Virus record (IMG/VR): IMGVR_UViG_2563366827_000004
Coordinates: 1 to 37,588 of that record
Direction: 5' to 3' (one strand)
DNA: 37,588 nt
DNA from: a virus
Taxonomy: Duplodnaviria > Heunggongvirae > Uroviricota > Caudoviricetes
Part shown: piece after piece, positions 27,001-37,588 of the stretch
How positions within the stretch are numbered: the first letter of the stretch is position 1
Layout: each line of letters begins with the position of its first letter
Made by a program: the position numbers and the translations under genes
Notes under the pieces: model-generated
Told to the model about the DNA's origin: nothing
Seen by the model: only the letters and a program-made list of their open reading frames with translations
Database searches by the model: none

Positions 27001-27273
27001 CTACCTGCCTTGACGAAAGACCTTAAGAACATCGTTAAACTGACTTACGGATATGTCTTCTTTGAGAAGCTTTTCCAGAAATGCGTTTGGAATGAACGTA
27101 TATCCCTCCTCTTTTGGTAGAGACGGGAGCAACGCCCTCGCCTCAGCCTTCAGAAGCTCAGTTCTGGCAACTTTCACAAAAGAGATTTGAGTTCTTTCAT
27201 CAATGGAACGAAGGAAGCGCAAACGCTTAGCTTCTTTGTGTGTATCAGGTGGATTAAAGCCTTTGTTTCGCAT
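27001..27273 (-). CDS. Hypothetical basic 90-aa protein between cII and O
   Basis: ATG at 27273 preceded by GAGGT; 22 bp after the cII stop and 2 bp before the O start. Taken from inside the longer track ORF 27001..27546. Confidence 0.55.
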   Translation of the reverse strand: MRNKGFNPPDTHKEAKRLRFLRSIDERTQISFVKVARTELLKAEARALLPSLPKEEGYTFIPNAFLEKLLKEDISVSQFNDVLKVFRQGR

Positions 27274-27295
27274 ATAATTACCTCGTTGGATGTTG

Positions 27296-27589
27296 TTAAA
27301 ATTCCATTTGTATTTGATCAGAACGCTCGGTTGCCGCCGGGCGTTTTTTATTGGTGAGAATCGAAGCAACTTGTCGTGCCAATCGAGCCATGTCGTCGTC
27401 GACAACACCCCATTCAAGAACAGCAAGCAGCATTGAGAACTTTGGAATCCAGTCCCTCTTCCACCTGCTGATCTGCGACTTATCAACGCCCACAGCTTCC
27501 GCTGTCTTCTCAGTTCCAAGCATTGCGATTTTGTTAAGCAACGCACTCTCGATTCTTAGAGCCTCGTTGCGTTTGTTTGCACGAACCAT
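27296..27589 (-). CDS. cII: Transcriptional activator CII
   Basis: 97 aa from MVRANKRNEALRIESALLNKIAMLGTEKTAEAVGVDKSQISRWKRDWIPKFSMLLAVLEWGV..., near-identical to recalled lambda CII. Confidence 0.95.
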   Translation of the reverse strand: MVRANKRNEALRIESALLNKIAMLGTEKTAEAVGVDKSQISRWKRDWIPKFSMLLAVLEWGVVDDDMARLARQVASILTNKKRPAATERSDQIQMEF

Positions 27590-27600
27590 ATGTAAGTATT

Positions 27601-27640
27601 TCCTTAACAAATAAGAAGTTATGCGCATCAACTTATGCGC
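27601..27640 (-). terminator. tR1-like hairpin between nutR and cII
   Basis: Minus-strand GCGCAU-N6-AUGCGC followed by a U-rich tract; weak. Confidence 0.3.
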
Positions 27641-27647
27641 GTTGTAT

Positions 27648-27691
27648 TCCCGCATTTCGGCGGGAATGAGGACCATGACTGTTAAAGAGCG
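27648..27691 (-). promoter_or_regulatory. nutR (boxA CGCTCTTTAACA and boxB hairpin)
   Basis: Minus-strand boxA is a perfect consensus, followed by a 6-bp stem hairpin UCCCGC-CGAAAU-GCGGGA, between cro and cII. Confidence 0.7.
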
Positions 27692-27998: not shown

Positions 27999-28715
27999 AT
28001 GGAAAATAAAAAATCACTGACGACAGAACAGCTGGAAGACGCTAAGCGGCTTAAGGCTTTGTATGAGTCAAAAAAGAAAGAATTGGGAATAACCCAATAC
28101 TCAATCGCTGATGAACTGGGTATCACCCAAGGAGCGGTAGGGCATTATCTTAATGGCAGAAATGCGCTAAACGTTGAGGTTGCATCTGGTTTTGCACGAT
28201 TGTTGCAAGTCTCAATTGCTGATTTTAGCCAGTCAATTGCTGCCAAGGTTGCAGAACAGGCAGAAAGCCTTAAGAGCGATGCCAACGTAAGGTATGCAGG
28301 GGAATACAGAGCAGGAAAGAGGTATCCGGTGTTAAGCAGTATCCAGGCTGGCTCGTGGTGTGAAGCATGCGAACCATACACCATTAAAGACATAGATGTT
28401 TGGCTTGAGTCTGACGCGCATATTCAAGGTAATGCGTTCTGGCTTAAAGTGGAAGGTGATTCAATGACGGCACCGGTTGGGTTAAGCATTCCAGAGGGAA
28501 CATTCGTTCTTTTCGATACCGGAAGGGAGGCGATCAACGGCAGCTTGGTCATAGCAAAACTTTCTGACTCTAACGAAGCAACATTCAAGAAGCTGATAAT
28601 CGACGGCGGAAATAAATACCTCAAGGGACTTAATCCTGCATGGCCTCTCGTGCCAATCAATGGAAACTGCAAGATTATAGGCGTTGCAATTGAGACAAAA
28701 CTCAGACTGGTTTGA
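27999..28715 (+). CDS. cI: CI repressor (lambda-CI-like, LexA-type autocleaving C-terminal domain)
   Basis: 238 aa; aligns with recalled lambda CI along its length (TQEQLEDA.RLKA.YE.KK.ELG...FWL.VEG.SMTAP...FTFKKLI.D) but the HTH recognition-helix region differs. Confidence 0.9.
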   Translation: MENKKSLTTEQLEDAKRLKALYESKKKELGITQYSIADELGITQGAVGHYLNGRNALNVEVASGFARLLQVSIADFSQSIAAKVAEQAESLKSDANVRYAGEYRAGKRYPVLSSIQAGSWCEACEPYTIKDIDVWLESDAHIQGNAFWLKVEGDSMTAPVGLSIPEGTFVLFDTGREAINGSLVIAKLSDSNEATFKKLIIDGGNKYLKGLNPAWPLVPINGNCKIIGVAIETKLRLV

Positions 28716-29233: not shown

Positions 29234-29275
29234 AATACCTTGGGTATTTACACAATAAAATACCTACAGTATTCT
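29234..29275 (+). promoter_or_regulatory. OL operators and pL promoter
   Basis: AATACCTTGGGTATT (29234-29248) and AATACCTACAGTATT (29259-29273), same palindrome family as OR; -35 TTTACA (29247-29252), 17 bp, -10 TATTCT (29270-29275). Confidence 0.6.
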
Positions 29276-29321: not shown

Positions 29322-29362
29322 GCTCTTTAACATTGATGGGATTGTCCCGCCGAAATGCGGGA
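29322..29362 (+). promoter_or_regulatory. nutL (boxA GCTCTTTAACA and boxB hairpin)
   Basis: boxB TCCCGC-CGAAAT-GCGGGA is identical to the nutR boxB. Confidence 0.7.
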
Positions 29363-29469: not shown

Positions 29470-29769
29470 ATGACAGTAGTCATTACATATCTGGCTGACG
29501 ATAACGCCAGAAATCGCCGCAGAGCACGCAGACAGGCTCAACGTGAACAGGCGATGCAAGAACAGCGACTGGCGCGAAAAATTGCGCTAAAGCTCTCTGG
29601 TTGCGTCAGAGCGGATAAAGCAGCATCACTCGGAATCCTTCGCTGCAAGAAGGCAGATGAAGTCGAGAGTAAACAGAATCGTATTTACTACCGCAAGCCA
29701 CGCAGTGAAATGGGTGTGACTTGTGTTGGTCGCCAGAAAATGAAATTAGGCAGCAAACCACTTATTTGA
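29470..29769 (+). CDS. N: N-like antitermination protein
   Basis: 99 aa, first gene after pL/nutL, GGAGG RBS, N-terminal arginine-rich motif DNARNRRRARRQAQREQ. Confidence 0.7.
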   Translation: MTVVITYLADDNARNRRRARRQAQREQAMQEQRLARKIALKLSGCVRADKAASLGILRCKKADEVESKQNRIYYRKPRSEMGVTCVGRQKMKLGSKPLI

Positions 29770-29780
29770 GAGGAATTAAT

Positions 29781-30404
29781 ATGTCATCAATCCGCTTAAC
29801 TACGAGAATGAAAGAGGAAATCGCTCGTAACGCTTTAATTAAGTCTGGGGTTTTCACTGAACTTGAAGAAGTAACAAAGTTAAAGAACCAGCTTGCACTT
29901 GACGCCAGAGTTATTGCGTTTGGCGGTAAAAAGAAAACTGAGGAAGTGGATCGGTTATCATCCAAGTTAGCAGCTATAAGTGAAGAACTTGAGAAGATGG
30001 GATGTTCATTTTACTCATGCGATGTTCGTTCTGCTTCGATTTATCTGACTGTATCTGGAAGAAGGGTTGGCTGGCATTCATACGGAAAAGACGGCAACGG
30101 TGAAGATATATTGCTCCCCACCCCAGAAAAAGATAAATGCATGTTTGACGCAGAACACGAAATAACAAAAAGGTTTGATGAAATCTGCGCATTGCAACAA
30201 AAACTTGAAGCCAAGAAAAAGGATATCGAATCAAATGTATGGGCTGCTTTGAACTCAGTCACAACAGTTAAGCGACTTATTGAAGTTTGGCCTGAAAGCA
30301 AAGAATTGCTACCAAAAGAAGCAGATAAAGCAAGTACAGCACTTCCTGCTTTACGGGTAGAAGATTTGAATAAGATGATTGGACTTCCTTCCGAGGCCGC
30401 ATAG
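29781..30404 (+). CDS. Hypothetical 207-aa protein co-transcribed with N
   Basis: ATG at 29781 with GAGAGGAA RBS, 12 bp after the N stop; soluble, no recognised motif. Confidence 0.7.
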   Translation: MSSIRLTTRMKEEIARNALIKSGVFTELEEVTKLKNQLALDARVIAFGGKKKTEEVDRLSSKLAAISEELEKMGCSFYSCDVRSASIYLTVSGRRVGWHSYGKDGNGEDILLPTPEKDKCMFDAEHEITKRFDEICALQQKLEAKKKDIESNVWAALNSVTTVKRLIEVWPESKELLPKEADKASTALPALRVEDLNKMIGLPSEAA

Positions 30405-30419
30405 TCGGCCTTTATTTTT
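30394..30419 (+). terminator. Intrinsic terminator overlapping the stop of the 207-aa gene
   Basis: AGGCCG-CATAGT-CGGCCT followed by TTATTTTT. Confidence 0.6.
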
Positions 30420-30448
30420 GGCATAAACAACAGAATAAACACTGCACT

Positions 30449-30476
30449 GTGTATTCATTCCAACGAGTGAATACAC
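30449..30476. promoter_or_regulatory. 12-bp inverted repeat (gtgtattcattc-caac-gagtgaatacac, 11/12 match)
   Basis: Seen directly between two terminators; no T-run follows. Confidence 0.3.
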
Positions 30477-30538
30477 GGAGCAATGTCGCTCGTAACTAAA
30501 CAGGAGCCGACTTGTTCTGATTATTGGAAATCTTCTTT

Positions 30539-30564
30539 GCCCTCCTATGTGAGGGCAATTTTTT
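30539..30564 (+). terminator. Second intrinsic terminator, immediately before the coiled-coil gene
   Basis: GCCCTC-CTATGT-GAGGGC followed by AATTTTTT, 12 bp before the GGAGG RBS. Confidence 0.55.
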
Positions 30565-30576
30565 GACGGAGGATAT

Positions 30577-31545
30577 ATGAGTGAAGTAACAGATTTAGTT
30601 GTTATTGAAAAAGCAAATGCAATGACTGTATTTCAGTCTGCCGACCAGATTGAAGAAATCCTTCAAAAGGTTGAACGTGAAGTTATGTCCTTTGTGCCTG
30701 ATATCACAACGGCAAAGGGCAGAAAGGAGATCGCTTCTCTGGCGTATAAAGTTGCGCAAACGAAAACATATCTCGATGGTCTTGGAAAAGACCTTGTTGC
30801 TGAACTGAAGGAAATTCCAAAGCTAATTGATGCCAACCGCAAGACAGTGCGTGATCGCCTTGATGAGCTGAAAGCCAAGGCACGCCAGCCTCTTACTGAT
30901 TATGAGGAGGAGCAGGCGCGGATTAAAGCCGAAGAAGAGGCTAAGGCAGCAGCTGAAGCTCTCGCAAAGCAAATTGAGTCTGACCATGAAATAGCGATTT
31001 TGATGGATCGCGAATTTGACCGCCAAAGAGAAGAGGCAAGACTCAAAGCGGAGCAGGAAAAGCGAGAGCATGAAGAACGCTTAAAAAGAGAAGCTGAAGA
31101 GAAAGCCAGAGCAGAAGCCGAAGCAAAGGCAAAAGCCGAAATTGAAGCAGCAGCAAGGCGAGAAGCAGAGGCTAAGGCCGCAGCGGAACGTGCAGAGCGT
31201 GAACGCATTGAAGCCGAGCAACGAGCACAGCGCGAAGCAAAAGAGGCAGCAGAACGGGCTGAAAGAGAAAAGCAGGCGGCAATTGAAGCAGAACGCCGAA
31301 AAGCACAGGAGGAGGCAGAACGAATCCGGCGCGAGGCTGAAGCAAAAGAGCAAGCCAGAATAGCAGAAGAAAAAAGAATCAAGGACGAAGAAGAGCGTAG
31401 AGCAAAGGATAAAGCTCACCGGAAAGAAGTAAATAACAAAATACTTGCTGACCTTATCAAGGTTGGCGCATCAGAAGATGTTGCTAAAAATATCATAACA
31501 GCCATCGTAAAAGGCGAAGTATTCGCAACAAAAATAACCTACTAA
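30577..31545 (+). CDS. Hypothetical protein with a long E/R/K/A-rich helical repeat region
   Basis: 322 aa; about 150 central residues are almost only E, A, R, K, Q; globular-looking N- and C-termini; GGAGG RBS. Confidence 0.7.
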   Translation: MSEVTDLVVIEKANAMTVFQSADQIEEILQKVEREVMSFVPDITTAKGRKEIASLAYKVAQTKTYLDGLGKDLVAELKEIPKLIDANRKTVRDRLDELKAKARQPLTDYEEEQARIKAEEEAKAAAEALAKQIESDHEIAILMDREFDRQREEARLKAEQEKREHEERLKREAEEKARAEAEAKAKAEIEAAARREAEAKAAAERAERERIEAEQRAQREAKEAAERAEREKQAAIEAERRKAQEEAERIRREAEAKEQARIAEEKRIKDEEERRAKDKAHRKEVNNKILADLIKVGASEDVAKNIITAIVKGEVFATKITY

Positions 31546-31569
31546 TAAAACCAACATAAGGAACCACCC

Positions 31570-31701
31570 ATGATTTACGCAATCGCGGGAGGCGCTCGCA
31601 TGGGTGCCTTCCAACTAAATGAATCTTTACTTGAACGAATCACCCGTAAATTACGTGACGGATGGAAAAGAGTTGAGATCTTATTATGCGCAATGAAATA
31701 G
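31570..31701 (+). CDS. Possible small protein (43 aa)
   Basis: ATG 31570 after AAGGAA; below the track cutoff. Confidence 0.3.
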   Translation: MIYAIAGGARMGAFQLNESLLERITRKLRDGWKRVEILLCAMK

Positions 31702-31838
31702 CCATCAATCACCAGATGCTTCGTGCTGCACAGAACAAAGCAGTAATAGCCAGATTTATTGGTGATTCAAAAATGTGGCTTGAAGCAAATAAAGCGATGA
31801 AATCAGCTATCAACCTTCCGTGGTATCGCAGGAAATGA
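31686..31838 (+). CDS. Possible small protein (50 aa)
   Basis: Overlaps the previous ORF; stop overlaps the next start (ATGA). Confidence 0.3.
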   Translation: MRNEIAINHQMLRAAQNKAVIARFIGDSKMWLEANKAMKSAINLPWYRRK

Positions 31839-31993
31839 GTTTTACAGATAACTGGTCAGACGAAGAATTCATTCGTCAGATGAAAGATTTAATCGGTAAC
31901 GAAGGAGATATTCATGTCACTTGCAACCACAGTGAAGGAGAGCAAGTTACAGAGACGCATGTACACGCAGAAAGCTCTCTGGTATCGCCATAA
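31835..31993 (+). CDS. Possible small protein (52 aa)
   Basis: ATGA-coupled to the previous ORF; below the track cutoff. Confidence 0.3.
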   Translation: MSFTDNWSDEEFIRQMKDLIGNEGDIHVTCNHSEGEQVTETHVHAESSLVSP

Positions 31994-32092
31994 TGGTGAC
32001 CGCGAAGGAATGCGGGTATGCCTTAATTTGTCCCGAGTCGAAGTATTAAATCAGCGTTATTTCCTTGGGCCTTGTCCATTCTGAGGTGAATT

Positions 32093-32800
32093 ATGGATTT
32101 GAACAAATTCGATGAGCCATTCAGCCCTGAAGATATCGAATGGCGAATACAGCAAAGCGGTAAAACACGCGATGGCAAGGTGTGGGCTATGGTGCTGGCT
32201 TATATCACGAACCGGGCAATCATGAAACGCCTGGACGATGTTTGCGGCAAAGCAGGATGGCGCAATGAATACCGCGATATTCCCAACAACGGCGGCGTTG
32301 AATGCGGCATATCAATAAAGATTGATTCCGAATGGGTAACCAAATGGGATGCTGCTGAAAACACGCAGGTAGAAGCCGTCAAAGGTGGTCGTTCAGGTGC
32401 AATGAAGCGTGCTGCCGTTCAGTGGGGAATCGGTCGGTATCTGTATAACCTTGAGGAAGGTTTCGCACAAACATCTCTCGATAAAAAGCAGGGGTGGCAC
32501 AGGGCAAAACTGAAGGATGGAACAGGATTTTACTGGCTCCCTCCATCGCTGCCGGGATGGGCAATCCCAGCATCAGATAACAAACCATCACCAGAAAATA
32601 CCAACCAGAAATCTCCATCGGTTGACTGCGAACAAATCCTGAAAGACTTCAGCGATTATGCGTCAACAGAAACTGACAAGAAAAAACTCATCGAGCGTTA
32701 TCAGCGTGACTGGCAATTAATGGCTGGCAACGAGGAGGCGCAGGCTAAATGCGTTCAGGTAATGAACATCAGAGTTAACGAACTAAAACAGGCGGCATAA
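32093..32800 (+). CDS. Single-strand annealing recombinase (Rad52/Erf-type SSAP)
   Basis: 235 aa; motif AMKRAAVQWGIGRYLYNLE is typical of Rad52-like phage annealases; the C-terminal ~50 aa resemble what I recall of the P22 Erf C-terminus (unverified). Confidence 0.7.
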   Translation: MDLNKFDEPFSPEDIEWRIQQSGKTRDGKVWAMVLAYITNRAIMKRLDDVCGKAGWRNEYRDIPNNGGVECGISIKIDSEWVTKWDAAENTQVEAVKGGRSGAMKRAAVQWGIGRYLYNLEEGFAQTSLDKKQGWHRAKLKDGTGFYWLPPSLPGWAIPASDNKPSPENTNQKSPSVDCEQILKDFSDYASTETDKKKLIERYQRDWQLMAGNEEAQAKCVQVMNIRVNELKQAA

Positions 32801-33274
32801 ATGGCAAGCAGAGGCGTAAATAAGGTGATCATTATTGGTCGCCTTGGGCATGATCCAGAAATCAGATATTCACCATCAGGAACGGCATTTGCAAACCTTA
32901 CAGTTGCTACGTCAGAACAATGGCGTGATAAGCAAACTGGAGAGCAAAAGGAGCAGACGGAGTGGCACCGTGTGGTAATGAGCGGGAAACTAGCAGAAAT
33001 TGCCAGCGAGTATCTGCGAAAAGGCTCTGAGGTTTATCTTGAAGGCAAATTGCGGACAAGAAAATGGCAGGATCAAAGCGGACAGGATCGGTTCACTACC
33101 GAAGTTATCGTAGGCGTTGGTGGAACCATGCAAATGCTTGGTGGCAAGCAAGGAGGCAATGAACAGTCTTCACCTCAGCGAAATAACGGTCAGCAACAAA
33201 GACAGCAACCTCTGCAGCAGGGAAATCACAGCGAACCACCTATGAACTTCGACGATTCGGATATTCCGTTCTAG
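32801..33274 (+). CDS. ssb: Single-stranded DNA-binding protein
   Basis: 157 aa; OB-fold-like N-terminus, Gln/Gly-rich linker and acidic tail ending DDSDIPF. Confidence 0.9.
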
Positions 33275-33283
33275 GAGCTGAAT

Positions 33284-33763
33284 ATGAAAATCTGCTCAAG
33301 ATGCCATCAACAGAAGGAAGAAAAGGACTTTCAAATCAGAAGAGCATCCAGAGATGGATTAACTGCCGCTTGCCGGGCTTGCCTGGCTGAATACGACAAA
33401 GAGCGCGCGGGATTGCCACATCGAGTATCAGCAAGGAGAGAATATCAATCATCGGAACGCGGCAGAGAACGGTGTAACGCAGCCAAAAAGCGGTTCATTC
33501 AGAGCAACCCATGGAAAAGAAAAGCCCACATCATCGTGGGTAATTTTTTGCGCGACGGTAAGCTAATCCGACCACCACAATGTGAGTGCTGCGGATCAGA
33601 ATGTAAACCACAGGCGCACCACTGCGACTACAGCAAACCAACCGATGTGATGTGGCTCTGCAAGTCATGTCATGTCGAGTGGCACAAACATAACAAACCT
33701 ATCTACCCAGACGAGGAACCAGTAACTCTCCCCTTCCCTCGTCACGCTATTCACGCAATTTAA
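33284..33763 (+). CDS. HNH endonuclease-like zinc-binding protein
   Basis: 159 aa; N-terminal Cys pairs and C-terminal CECCGSE...AHHCDY...LCKSCHVEWH, an HNH-type motif. Confidence 0.6.
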   Translation: MKICSRCHQQKEEKDFQIRRASRDGLTAACRACLAEYDKERAGLPHRVSARREYQSSERGRERCNAAKKRFIQSNPWKRKAHIIVGNFLRDGKLIRPPQCECCGSECKPQAHHCDYSKPTDVMWLCKSCHVEWHKHNKPIYPDEEPVTLPFPRHAIHAI

Positions 33764-33776
33764 TCAGGAGAAAATC

Positions 33777-34070
33777 ATGCCAGCGCCTCTGTATGGTGCG
33801 GATGACGCGCGCCGCTGTTCCGGCAATTCCGTATCGGAGGTGCTGGATAAATTCAGAAAAAACTACGATCGAATAATGTCGCTACCGCAGGAAACGAAAG
33901 AGGAAAAGGAATTTCGCCATTGTATATGGCTTGCAGAGAAAGAAGAACGCGAGCGAATTTACCAGACATCAATCCGACCATTCCGCAAAGCCACATATAC
34001 CCACTTCCCTGAAATTGACCCGCGCCTGCGTAATTACCGCTCACGCTATGGCGCTATCAGTAATGACTGA
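33777..34070 (+). CDS. Hypothetical protein
   Basis: 97 aa; AGGAG RBS 6 nt upstream. Confidence 0.5.
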
Positions 34071-34080
34071 GGAATTTACC

Positions 34081-34245
34081 ATGAGAGGACTTGCATACAA
34101 TCCCGGCATTCTTCCGGCAGAAATGATTATTCGCCAACGCGTAAAGCCAATGCCATCGAGAGAGGAATTGCTCAAGAGAAATTCTTTTCCATCAGTAAAT
34201 CAAAACAAATATCTGAATGCGATGTGGCGGAGTGGGAAGAAATGA
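34081..34245 (+). CDS. Hypothetical small protein (54 aa)
   Basis: ATG 34081 after GAGGAA; start choice uncertain (alternative ATG 34060). Confidence 0.35.
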
Positions 34246-34778
34246 AACAAATGTCACTAATTGAGATGGATGGATTTCTGAAAGGTAAATGCATCCCACG
34301 AGATTTAAAGGTTAACGAAACAAACGCTGAATATCTGGTGCGTAAATTTGCTGAAGCGGAGGCCAAGATTTCGGCTCTGTCCGAAGACCACCAGAAAGCG
34401 ATTGAGTCAATTAAGCAGGCTGATGCGGCTGTTAAGTTGGCACACGAGAAGTTTTCGGCGCTGGCGGCGGAGAATGCGGGGCTGAAGTCTGGCGCTATGG
34501 ACGAAATCAAGGTTATCAACCGTGGAGGGCAGGCATATTGCGTAAAAGATGGAGTGCAAGTTAATCCCATGTATGCAAGAGGGTGGAATGACTATCGCGC
34601 AAAGTCTATGCAATCAGACACCCCAGCCACCGATGCTTTCCTGACTGAAATTGAACGCAAAGCAATCCGAAAGTTCATTAACAGCATTGAACACATCCTG
34701 CGTGACAAGTTGTCACCGTATGACACCGAAGAGATGCTTGAGACTATGCGTATTTTTCTGGAAGAACAGGGAGGCTAG
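34242..34778 (+). CDS. Hypothetical protein (178 aa)
   Basis: ATGA overlap with the upstream stop; GGAG RBS. Confidence 0.55.
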
Positions 34779-34783
34779 CAAAA

Positions 34784-35098
34784 ATGACAATCACAAAACA
34801 ACGAGTAGAAAAAATCATATATCGCCATGAAATGGGACTGAACAGCGATGTCACTGCCGAAGAGGTTTATGACCTGGCTGTACTGGCGCTGAATTTATCA
34901 AATATCGCAAACCTGAAGCGATACGAGCTTGATATGGGAGGTTGCGACTCGTGCGGTCAGGATTGTGGCGCTGACATGACTGAAGATTCTGATGGCGATT
35001 ATGTCCTGTTTGATGACGTGGTTAAGTTGTTTGAGTTTGATACAACCACTCAGAAGTTAGAAGGCCCAGCAAAGGAGACAACCAGTGAGCGAAATTGA
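34784..35098 (+). CDS. Hypothetical acidic protein (104 aa)
   Basis: ORF with RBS; cysteine cluster CDSCGQDCG. Confidence 0.5.
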   Translation: MTITKQRVEKIIYRHEMGLNSDVTAEEVYDLAVLALNLSNIANLKRYELDMGGCDSCGQDCGADMTEDSDGDYVLFDDVVKLFEFDTTTQKLEGPAKETTSERN

Positions 35099-35981
35099 CT
35101 ATCAGGCACTGCGTGAAAAGGCAGAGAAAGCAACGTGTGGGGTGTGGTCGCTCGAATATGGAGAGAGCCGATTTGATTGTGATGATGCGCTAATTCATCG
35201 TGACGTTGTTGGATATATTCCCATTTGCAGAATTGAAGGAGCGCATCCTGAAAGCGGTTTCGATGAAGATTTCCAAATGGAACAGCAGGCCAATGCTGAA
35301 TTCATCGCCGCAGCCAATCCGGCTACTGTGCTGGCACTACTGGATGAACGGGAAAGAAACCAGCAATACATAAAACGCCGCGACCAGGAGAACGAGGAGA
35401 TTGCGCTAACGGTAGGGAAGCTGCGCGTTGAGCTGGAAGGCAAAGACAAGCTGATTGCAGAGCTTAGAAAACAATGCGCTGAATGGGAGCGAAAAGCATT
35501 AAGCAACTTTGAAGAGTGTGCTGCGATGGCTGAACGTATCGAAGAGTTGCAGACAAAATCTGCACCAGATTCGTTTGGCATCATCGGTGAAAATATTCGA
35601 ACACAGGATAATCGAATAACGTCAGACCCTATGTTTTGTGTGTATCAAAAGCGCGAAATCGTTGTTGATGCTGATTATGACTATGACCGGATTGTCTGGG
35701 TTGATGAAGATGGCAATGAAGCCAATAAACGCCAAAGTCGTCGTCTCGAACTACTTCACGAAAACTTTCGAGAGCCACCAGAAAAGTGGCGGCGCGTTGC
35801 TGTGAAAGATATTGATGAATTCGTTACCTGCTGTTTCACCGAACAGGGTTGTAAAGATTACCTGGCAGTCAATGGTCACAATCTTCGCTTGCCATTTATA
35901 TATGTAAAAAGTGGTTTCAGGAACGCTGAATATATCGGCATAAGAAACTGGCTTGCTGGCATTCGCATCAAAGGAGAGTGA
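35085..35981 (+). CDS. Ead/Ea22-like protein
   Basis: 298 aa; GTG start after AAAGGAGA; block ANAEFIAAANPATVLALLDERE is characteristic of Ead/Ea22-like prophage proteins. Confidence 0.65.
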   Translation: MSEIDYQALREKAEKATCGVWSLEYGESRFDCDDALIHRDVVGYIPICRIEGAHPESGFDEDFQMEQQANAEFIAAANPATVLALLDERERNQQYIKRRDQENEEIALTVGKLRVELEGKDKLIAELRKQCAEWERKALSNFEECAAMAERIEELQTKSAPDSFGIIGENIRTQDNRITSDPMFCVYQKREIVVDADYDYDRIVWVDEDGNEANKRQSRRLELLHENFREPPEKWRRVAVKDIDEFVTCCFTEQGCKDYLAVNGHNLRLPFIYVKSGFRNAEYIGIRNWLAGIRIKGE

Positions 35982-35982
35982 G

Positions 35983-36174
35983 ATGAACGGACAAATATCA
36001 ATTGTTCGACCGGGAGCATGTGACGATTGCGAGATACGAATGATTATTCGTCTGGCGATGGGGAAAACAATAACTGCTCTCATTACTCCTGAAAATCTCG
36101 CATTAGCATTAACAGGAAAGTCAGACCTGCCAGTAGAGCTAAAGCTGCGAAACGTTGAGATTAAAGTGAAATAG
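35983..36174 (+). CDS. Hypothetical small protein (63 aa)
   Basis: ATG 35983 after AAGGAGAG, 1 bp after the upstream stop. Confidence 0.45.
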   Translation: MNGQISIVRPGACDDCEIRMIIRLAMGKTITALITPENLALALTGKSDLPVELKLRNVEIKVK

Positions 36175-36176
36175 TT

Positions 36177-36701
36177 ATGAATACTCTTACCAAAGAATGG
36201 TTACAGAACACGATTACCAGCATTGAGTCAGCACGGGATGAAATACCGTTCGGACTCAATGAAGATCAAAACAACATGCTTACCGCATTAAAAATTGCAC
36301 TGACATCGCTGGAAGCAGAGCCGGTGGCATGGAAGGCAACCTTCACGCAAATTGACAATGAATATAATACATTCACCACTATGTATTCTGACAAAGCAGA
36401 AGTCGAACGCTGGGTGCGACTGCATGAAATAGGTGACTTTCGGGCAGAAATAACACCGCTTTACGCAGCGCCGTCAGCGCCGGTAATTCCGGATGGTTGG
36501 ATAAGCTGTAGTGAGCGGATGCCAGATGATGGTCAGCACGTAATTATTTTATGTGATGGCGCATTCGTTCTTTATGCGCAATATCGAGACGGAGAGTTTT
36601 TCGATATTGTCCGCAATGGTGATGAATTTTTCGAAACACAGAGTCGCAATGTAACCGACTGGATGCCGCTGCCAGAACCGCCGGAGCAGGATGGTGAATG
36701 A
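36177..36701 (+). CDS. DUF551-like phage protein
   Basis: 174 aa; C-terminal part (DGWISCSERMPDDGQHVIILCDG...DWMPLPEPP) resembles the DUF551 family seen in lambdoid early-left regions. Confidence 0.55.
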   Translation: MNTLTKEWLQNTITSIESARDEIPFGLNEDQNNMLTALKIALTSLEAEPVAWKATFTQIDNEYNTFTTMYSDKAEVERWVRLHEIGDFRAEITPLYAAPSAPVIPDGWISCSERMPDDGQHVIILCDGAFVLYAQYRDGEFFDIVRNGDEFFETQSRNVTDWMPLPEPPEQDGE

Positions 36702-36787
36702 TGCCGCCAGTTAAAGTTGTGATTATCACTTTGGTGATGATAGTGATTGCGAGAATCATGTCTGGTGAAATTGGGTGGATATGGTAA
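36698..36787 (+). CDS. Possible 29-aa hydrophobic peptide
   Basis: MMPPVKVVIITLVMIVIARIMSGEIGWIW; ATG overlaps the upstream stop; single predicted TM helix. Confidence 0.3.
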   Translation: MMPPVKVVIITLVMIVIARIMSGEIGWIW

Positions 36788-36888
36788 TGACCATGGCAGC
36801 AGCAGATCGCAACTAACAATCCTCGCACTCGCGGGGATTTCTTTTATCTGAACTCGCTACGGCGGGTTTTGTTTTATGGAGATGATAA

Positions 36889-37056
36889 ATGCACTTTCGA
36901 GTCACAGGTGAATGGAATGGAGAGCCATTCAACAGGGTTATCGAAGCAGAGGACATCAACGACTGCTATAACCACTGGATGATATGGGCGCAGATAGCGC
37001 ATGCAGACGTAACCAATATTCGAATTGAAGAACTGAAAGAACACCAAGACGCCTGA
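36889..37056 (+). CDS. Hypothetical small protein (55 aa)
   Basis: ATG 36889, 7 nt after GGAG; followed by a hairpin and T-run. Confidence 0.4.
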   Translation: MHFRVTGEWNGEPFNRVIEAEDINDCYNHWMIWAQIAHADVTNIRIEELKEHQDA

Positions 37057-37069
37057 TGGCGGTTTTTTT
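37050..37069 (+). terminator. Weak hairpin plus T7 run (CGCC-TGAT-GGCG then TTTTTTT)
   Basis: Seen directly; stop codon of the 55-aa ORF lies in the loop. Confidence 0.35.
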
Positions 37070-37080
37070 GGGGGTAGTAG

Positions 37081-37296
37081 ATGGCTGCAATTCACATTGT
37101 CTCAATAATATGCAATGCAATTCAGATAGTTGCTTGCATTATCTTTGTTTTCTCAATCCTTCGCTCCCGACGATATTCTCCAGCAATTAACCGACATCCT
37201 GCACAGGTTGAAGCCGTCAGGATGGCTATAGAGTTACGAAATGAGATGAATAAGGCATTAATGGAGATGGAGAAACCATTCACTGACAAACATTAA
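37081..37296 (+). CDS. Small membrane protein (71 aa)
   Basis: MAAIHIVSIICNAIQIVACIIFVFSIL: N-terminal TM helix followed by a charged helical tail. Confidence 0.5.
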   Translation: MAAIHIVSIICNAIQIVACIIFVFSILRSRRYSPAINRHPAQVEAVRMAIELRNEMNKALMEMEKPFTDKH

Positions 37297-37358
37297 GAGT
37301 GTAAATAAAGAAATCACACCGCCTCACACTCGATGAGGCATGTACATATCTGATAGAT

Positions 37359-37381
37359 CCGCTATATGGCGGTTTCTTTTT
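37359..37381 (+). terminator. Weak hairpin plus T-run (CCGC-TATATG-GCGG then TTTCTTTTT) upstream of xis
   Basis: Seen directly; same GGCGGTTT motif as the element at 37050. Confidence 0.3.
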
Positions 37382-37396
37382 GCCTGGAGAATTAAG

Positions 37397-37588
37397 ATGA
37401 CCGATACCAGCCTGATTCCTGAGAAAGAAGTGATGAACAAGCTCGGTGTTTCATCACGTCAGACAATCTGGAACTATACCAAACGGCACGGATTTCCGAA
37501 GCCAGTCAGAACCCACCCCAAATCATACCTTCGTGAAGCTGTTGAAGGGTGGATTCTTAACGGTGGCGTTAATCAGAAATGCTCCTGA
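37397..37588 (+). CDS. xis: Excisionase / AlpA-family DNA-binding protein
   Basis: 63 aa from MTDTSLIPEKEVMNKLGVSSRQTIWNYTKRHGFPKPV...; GGAGA RBS; last gene before the expected int; stop is the final triplet of the window. Confidence 0.65.
   Translation: MTDTSLIPEKEVMNKLGVSSRQTIWNYTKRHGFPKPVRTHPKSYLREAVEGWILNGGVNQKCS

Follow-up and report, generated by a model that had tools for sequence, protein, structure and literature searches.

The window, by which we mean the whole 37,588-nucleotide stretch of DNA that was analysed, carries a lambdoid (lambda-like) prophage whose pL (early-left, exo-xis) operon has four hairpins at its distal end, each followed directly by a U-rich run. We consider it fairly probable that these elements, called A to D from 5' to 3', are intrinsic-terminator-like sites that N overrides and that they double as joints of the genetic mosaic in this part of the genome. 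As we discuss below, this reading draws on the anatomy of the hairpins, on their orthology to elements of phage lambda, on their conservation before three families of excisionase (recombination directionality factor, RDF) genes, on one covarying base pair, and on the clustering of recombination breakpoints.

Anatomy and setting of the four hairpins

All four U-runs stand directly 3' of a stem on the plus (coding) strand. Element A, with the U-run TCTTTTAT, is the strongest of the hairpins (-13.1 kcal/mol, z = -5.4) and sits 2 nt upstream of B (-11.0 kcal/mol, z = -3.4), which has the core CTCGC/GCGGG and in relatives carries a U-A pair in place of a U-G pair (GCGGG to GCGAG). The run of B abuts the orf55 ribosome-binding site GGAG (36878-81), with the ATG at 36889. 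Element C is followed by GGGGG (37070-74) and an ATG at 37081, and its loop contains the orf55 stop codon TGA (37054-56); element D is followed by GGAG (37386-89) and the ATG at 37397, and 15 nt separate it from the start of the xis-like gene. An initial annotation had listed B, C, and D as recurrent hairpin/T-run sites in front of three consecutive genes. These three sites were present where it had placed them, each followed by a G-rich ribosome-binding site and a start codon, and the starts at 36889, 37081, and 37397 agreed with the open reading frames and with annotated homologues. Element A had been missed, however, and the elements follow genes no less than they precede them.

Table 1. 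Positions of the features discussed, with breakpoint clusters given as numbers of alignment ends (n), which include many near-identical loci and are not independent events.
Feature	Position	Strand	Description
cI-like repressor gene	27999-28715	+	
pL-like promoter (promoter-like site)	29247-29275		5' of N
Candidate nutL	29323-29362	+	boxA-like GCTCTTTAAC, then boxB-like hairpin CCCGC-CGAAAT-GCGGG; resemblance judged by eye only
N-type antiterminator gene	29470-29769	+	phrog_271, E = 3e-36; tblastn to annotated N proteins
Element A	36818-36848	+	9-bp hairpin AATCCTCGC-ACTC-GCGGGGATT (36818-36839), run TCTTTTATC to 36848
Element B	36850-36876	+	8-bp hairpin GAACTCGC-TACG-GCGGGTTT, stem 36850-36869, run TTTTGTTTT
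orf55	36889-37056	+	55 aa, homologue of lambda lambdap35; phrog_676, E = 9e-39
Element C	37050-37069	+	4-bp hairpin CGCC-TGAT-GGCG (37050-37061), then T7 (37063-69)
orf71	37081-37296	+	small protein, hydrophobic N-terminus; phrog_15342, E = 7e-52
Leader hairpin	37321-37339	+	GCCTCA-CACTCGA-TGAGGC; first conserved bases of the RDF leader module
Element D	37359-37381	+	5-bp hairpin CCGCT-ATAT-GGCGG (37359-37372), run TTTCTTTTT (37373-81)
AlpA-type excisionase/regulator (RDF) gene	37397-37588	+	phrog_66 'excisionase and transcriptional regulator', E = 2e-8
Breakpoints	36810-14		n = 100, left ends; start of A
Breakpoints	36834-35		n = 16; 3' arm of A
Breakpoints	36842		n = 9; between A and B
Breakpoints	36886-91		n = 22; orf55 start
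Breakpoints	37005-09		n = 16; inside orf55
Breakpoints	37068-69		n = 129, right ends; end of C T-run
Breakpoints	37317-21		n = 42, left ends; start of leader hairpin
Breakpoints	37366		n = 41, left ends; 3' arm of D

Measured against a GC-rich stem of at least about 5 bp, A, B, and D were long enough and C was marginal. The stem of C alone folded at -4.9 kcal/mol, its optimal fold paired the U-run with upstream bases, and our terminator scan, which asks for five pairs, passed over it; the stem has 4 bp in the window versus 5-6 bp in lambda, and the hairpin is weakened in the window by a C-to-A change at position 37049. The stem of D gave -5.9 kcal/mol alone and -8.2 kcal/mol in context, no better than many shuffled sequences (z = -1.6); values for the other terminator-like hairpins of the window ranged from -12.5 to -16.7 kcal/mol. 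In the scan of 30000-37588, 15 terminator-like sites were found and 7.8 +/- 2.5 were expected, with A, B, and D among the eight on the plus strand. A d'Aubenton-Carafa-type score with ViennaRNA energies was left unused, having been negative even for a control hairpin at 27320-27347, the strongest-folding terminator-like one. A search of Rfam returned nothing at E <= 1 save one sub-threshold chance hit.

The repetition of these elements exceeds what base composition would produce. The string GGCGG followed by at least seven T's in ten positions matched three times in the window, always on the plus strand and within 510 nt, and shuffled sequences averaged 0.42 matches; the statement in the initial annotation that the repetition is no coincidence was borne out in this respect. 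The motif as it had been typed, GGCGG(G)TTTnTTTT, described D exactly and B with one mismatch, but C did not appear at one mismatch or fewer and by eye needs two. Because the shared core is short (GGCGG and T's) and 2% of the shuffles do reach three matches, one might see here an accidental likeness between GC-rich stems combined with T-rich spacers before ribosome-binding sites. We hold this to be extremely improbable: against it stand the strand and spacing of the three matches, and it is already disfavoured by the conservation of all the elements in hundreds of phages and prophages, three of them being common to lambda.

The late genes of the window lie on the minus strand. Downstream of the N gene runs a long plus-strand operon, which ends in an ea22-like gene, a DUF551 gene, orf55 (576 relatives in IMG/VR; the note to HK140 gp31 reads 'similar to lambdap35'), orf71, and the 63-aa AlpA-type gene. 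By tblastn, residues 1-64 of the N protein shared 97% identity with the N of phage mEp213, and its C-terminal 63 aa (residues 37-99) shared 92% identity with the N-like protein of DE3, also a phage; the protein is thus a chimera of an mEp213-like N-terminal part and a DE3-like C-terminal part, and its match to the Pfam N_peptide family fell below that family's cut-off. Read straight from the sequence, the candidate nutL is placed between the pL-like promoter and N. Its boxB-like loop, CGAAAT, differs from the loop of lambda boxB. The N gene and the nutL-like site lie upstream of the hairpins and on the same strand, and read-through to the xis-like gene under the control of N is therefore plausible on sequence grounds. 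Our scan found no plus-strand promoter-like site in 32000-37588, which covers about 5 kb upstream of the elements, and only one past position 30000, at 31841. Two good terminator-like hairpins in tandem (30393-30422 and 30537-30568, plus strand) follow the second gene of the pL operon and are candidates for a tL1-like pair.

Counterparts in lambda, HK140, and P22

First, phage lambda has the same arrangement on its leftward strand, in the order ea8.5, A, B, orf55 (lambdap35), C, and xis, with a single base differing from the window in the A/B stretch (in the T-run of A) and a single base in the stem of C. In lambda, the orthologues of A, B, and C have been listed as t3, t4, and t5, terminators predicted in silico with ARNold rather than mapped by their 3' ends (Bloch et al., 2014, Table 4; PMC4195576). 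Sequence, order (upstream gene, A, B, orf55, C), strand, and location are all shared, the location being the last stretch of the pL operon ahead of the excisionase gene. The two genomes part ways after C, which in lambda is directly followed by xis and int in the same orientation; in the window, orf71 and D intervene, the RDF is of the AlpA type, and int is convergent. We found no usable table of 3' ends for these sites in published lambda, exo-xis, or EHEC Term-seq data.

Second, the pL operon of lambda contains the intrinsic terminators tL1, tL2, and tL3, the last just after exo, which N-modified polymerase overrides, so that the distal genes depend on N. The window likewise has an N gene and a nutL-like site. 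The lambda terminators, however, have been demonstrated experimentally and are proximal (from N to exo), whereas the elements of the window are terminator-like in sequence and lie at the far end of the operon.

Third, the GenBank record of HK140 annotates a 'rho-independent terminator' between the orf55 homologue and the AlpA-type gene. This site is a fusion in which the left arm and loop are those of C, and the right arm and tail those of D (GCCGCCTGATGGCGG|TTTCTTTTTGCCTGGAGAATTAAGATG). Elements C and D themselves matched at 24 of 31 positions in a hand alignment of hairpin variants, and D is a diverged copy of C. Thus, A to C were already known as lambda predictions and the C/D hybrid as an annotated terminator, which makes the present finding real but ordinary. 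The earlier description of the sites as weak intrinsic terminators is supported as to form by stem, U-run, strand, lambda orthology, the HK140 annotation, and covariation; the 4-bp stem of C counts against it.

Finally, the P22 record suggests a different use for the same sequence. Its xis abuts eaC with no hairpin between, and the C hairpin is found one gene further up: P22 has no orf55, yet the last 45 nt of that gene, hairpin C, and the T-run precede eaC (locus L326, 6391-6460, minus strand). The P22-like 45-nt remnant of orf55 also occurred in several IMG/VR loci. The record annotates the orthologue of C on the other strand, where it would terminate an antisense transcript, aI RNA; this annotation, together with the retention of the orf55 remnant beside C in phages that lack orf55, raises the question of whether the elements serve to end an antisense RNA of this kind or a convergent int transcript. 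Read on the minus strand, the leader hairpin (37340-37320) is followed by GGTGTGATTTCTTTATTT, a T-rich tail that could end a convergent int transcript in the orf71 context, but the tail is absent in most relatives. In the window, the minus-strand versions of the elements have no proper U-run and their folds are weak (-6.9 kcal/mol with z = -0.6 for C, -6.7 kcal/mol with z = -1.2 for D), and the sequence rightward of C contains no exact TTGC-N6-TTGC site of the cII type. We regard a role on the opposite strand as very unlikely and retain the plus-strand, terminator-like reading.

Mosaic joints at the hairpins

The region had matches in 523 phage records, with no match extending over 80% of the region, and in 2681 of 5426 complete E. 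coli genomes, only 29 of them over 80% of the query; among the E. coli matches listed, most started at 36814, 4 nt before A. BLAST of positions 35000-37588 against loci L001-L162 (the orf55 and AlpA-type sets, HK140, WGPS8, and lambda) gave the breakpoint clusters in Table 1. By our own tally, which includes many near-identical loci and so does not count independent events, about 87% of the breakpoints in 36790-37400 fell on an element or within 5 nt of one.

The genes on either side of these breakpoints varied. A-B-orf55-C moves as one unit. Before A there were at least six different gene ends, before the RDF leader there were three, and at least five different genes followed the T-run of C, including lambda xis, a torI-type RDF gene, an AlpA-type RDF gene, a 114-aa gene, and orf71. 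As a cassette, orf71 has been inserted between element C and the RDF leader; HK140 lacks it, and among relatives it is present or absent. In some loci A was replaced by an unrelated hairpin (CCGC-TTAAT-GCGG or CCCGC-CGAGT-GCGGG) with the same T-run after it, and in 14 loci no hairpin stood at the position of A. Hybrids with the left arm of C and the tail of D were found in HK140 and in at least 28 IMG/VR loci. These comparisons showed the elements to be mosaic joints, or lambdoid 'boundary sequences', with crossovers in or next to the T-run. The initial annotation took the repetition of the hairpins to mark a shared regulatory module; the match between C and D fits better with cassette-boundary elements that recombine with one another. 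Selection following illegitimate recombination, as opposed to targeting, could also account for joints at the ends of genes.

Lambdoid module junctions carry short conserved boundary sequences (Clark et al., 2001, J Mol Biol 311:657, as cited in PMC3029335). The joints described here are similar in that short conserved sequences lie between non-homologous modules and contain the recombinant joints; they differ in that the boundary sequence of the window is a terminator-like hairpin as well. The modular theory behind such comparisons reportedly goes back to Susskind and Botstein in 1978. Morons, which are said to have been described by Juhala et al. and by Hendrix et al. in 2000, offer another parallel, for orf71 and the 114-aa gene are present or absent between otherwise neighbouring genes and have a terminator-like hairpin at their border. 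Unlike what is expected of morons, though, the hairpins accompany orf55 and the RDF leader rather than the inserted genes. We also considered the cassettes as classical morons and rejected this assignment, because no promoter-like site accompanies them.

Might the elements then be linkers or scars and nothing else, kept by homologous recombination of the Red/Erf type or as harmless joints, with no part in transcription? The accumulation of breakpoints on the elements, crossovers inside the T-run, and the C/D hybrids would all be expected, and the phage may encode an Erf-type recombinase (an impression from the sequence of the open reading frame at 32093-32800). Homology alone, however, leaves unexplained why the T-runs are oriented on one strand, why unrelated hairpins replace A at the same spot, and why a loop-closing pair covaries in an alignment in which 92% of cells pair. 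We judge an exclusively recombinational role to be unlikely and prefer a joint that is terminator-like too.

Hairpins before excisionase genes and their proposed role

We compared 314 related loci in all; the IMG/VR sets comprised 80 loci for each of four queries, namely orf55, the AlpA-type gene, TorI, and lambda Xis. A hairpin and T-run stood no more than 75 nt upstream of the RDF start in 75 alpA-type, 80 torI-type, and 79 lambda-xis-type loci, a count of those loci with a locatable RDF start and enough upstream sequence, none of which fell into the class without a hairpin. The three RDF types are unrelated, and yet each has a hairpin before it. Type C (GCCGCC-TGAT-GGCGG) was found with all three and type E (GCCGCA-TCAA-TGCGGC) with two; the others were type D (CCGCT-ATAT-GGCGG), type G (GGAGC-TTCG-GCTCC), which is unrelated in sequence, and type F, a degenerate form that is the one in the K-12 element KplE1. 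There, in E. coli K-12 BW25113 (locus L324, 950-975), torI is preceded by a degenerate hairpin of about 3 bp, CGCCGTCATAGAGCG, so that K-12 can tell us nothing about 3' ends at this site. Many other E. coli prophages have an intact 6-bp hairpin before torI.

With the stems set in a common register, 92% of cells paired, and the pair closing the loop covaried, being C-G in 10 variants, A-U in 5, and U-G in 5. The covariation score was reached by none of 500 shuffles and was far lower in slid registers, although the register was set by hand, independent changes were few, and changes of the inner pairs came from the single G row. The T-run was invariant at five of ten columns across hairpin types. 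Its T-rich tail mostly tracked the type of RDF, which points to crossovers at the border between stem and T-run; tails of one RDF type were also found with another RDF.

Conservation of the T-run bears on a further explanation, in which the hairpins shield small upstream mRNAs from 3' exonucleases after processing of the pL transcript. Their location at the 3' ends of small cistrons would suit such a function, as would the weakness of C and D, which are too weak for good terminators. Protection requires no conserved U-run, however, and no processing site is known in the region. We therefore consider stabilisation of 3' ends distinctly improbable and return to termination overridden by N as the reading to be developed here.

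The last base of the window is the end of the RDF stop codon, and int consequently lies outside it; many IMG/VR prophage calls end exactly at the RDF stop codon and thus lack int. In the nearest genome, E. coli FT130 (97.5% identity over 887 nt), where the prophage adjoins sbcB, int (locus L163, 2868-4046) lies on the opposite strand, overlaps the 3' end of the RDF gene by 20 nt, and is convergent with it. HK140 and Stx2a_WGPS8 have int in the same arrangement, the HK140 integrase being annotated as similar to that of phage 2851, and in all three genomes the RDF homologues adjoin int and are annotated as AlpA family. Because int is convergent and on the other strand, it is not expressed by read-through of the hairpins and must have its own promoter. 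The initial proposal that expression of int as well as xis depends on these elements hence does not hold for int.

An uncoupling of this sort has precedent in the KplE1/HK620/Sf6/CUS-3 module, in which int and RDF transcription are separate (Panis et al., 2010; PMC2951348). As in that module, int would be transcribed apart from the RDF gene and directionality would rest on RDF expression alone; the torI-type RDF of the KplE1-like module, moreover, has the same hairpin/T-run leader in many prophages. The RDF and integrase of the window are of another type.

How might the elements act? Termination at A to D, its efficiency, and read-through under N are steps that we infer. N-modified complexes are known to read through intrinsic terminators in the lambda pL operon. 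In the mechanism we propose, unmodified polymerase arriving from upstream would be stopped in part at each hairpin, stepwise before the RDF gene; A and B look like moderate terminators and C and D like weak ones. Only polymerase modified by N at nutL would reach the RDF gene efficiently, and excision would thereby be licensed by induction, with int, convergent and presumably transcribed from its own promoter, outside the control of the hairpins. Several observations speak against this mechanism: the short stem of C and the poor fold of D, the 14 loci with no hairpin where A would stand, the degenerate hairpin of KplE1, and the lack of one between eaC and xis in P22. Given that the loop of C includes the stop codon of orf55, termination at that element may depend as well on how close the ribosome is to the polymerase.

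More tentatively, and with appreciable doubt, we suggest that the hairpin/T-run is an exchangeable 'excision gate and linker' placed before three families of excisionase (lambda Xis, TorI-type, and AlpA-type). As a gate, the hairpin would insulate the RDF gene from transcription that has not been antiterminated, and with a convergent and self-promoted int, N would be the sole licence for excision. As a linker, the same sequence would provide a patch of homology for swapping RDF modules and small accessory genes. Should the predicted termination take place, the hairpins would explain why the excisionase is silent until induction even when int is expressed separately. The shared joints illustrate cleanly, at the level of single bases, how small genes and recombination modules are reshuffled among lambdoid phages. 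Neither of these points alters current understanding. The practical value lies in annotation, with four terminator-like sites, a map of the cassettes, and a corrected orientation for int.

The leader hairpin opens a leader of 60-90 nt that precedes RDF genes of all three types (alpA, torI, and lambda xis) and starts just downstream of the stop codon of one or another upstream gene; on the plus strand the hairpin has no U-run. The leader and terminator arms are alike, and we considered a translation-coupled attenuator with 2:3 pairing; this model was rejected, because the terminator hairpin still formed in constrained folding with region 1 masked, in all three kinds of leader (E-type, common D-type, and window D-type).

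Two further features of the window may be recorded. On the plus strand at 27320-27357, a 12-bp terminator-like hairpin with a T-run overlaps the minus-strand open reading frames 27001-27546 and 27296-27676; we take the hairpin to resemble the lambda oop terminator and the second of these frames to be cII-like. An exact TTGC-N6-TTGC site, of the pRE-like kind, occurs at 27567-27580. Just upstream of A, a 29-aa hydrophobic open reading frame (36698-36787, plus strand; MMPPVKVVIITLVMIVIARIMSGEIGWIW) overlaps the DUF551 stop codon (ATGA) and may encode a small membrane peptide; it is kept in Stx2a_WGPS8 (locus L002, 3665-3752), where it carries no annotation.
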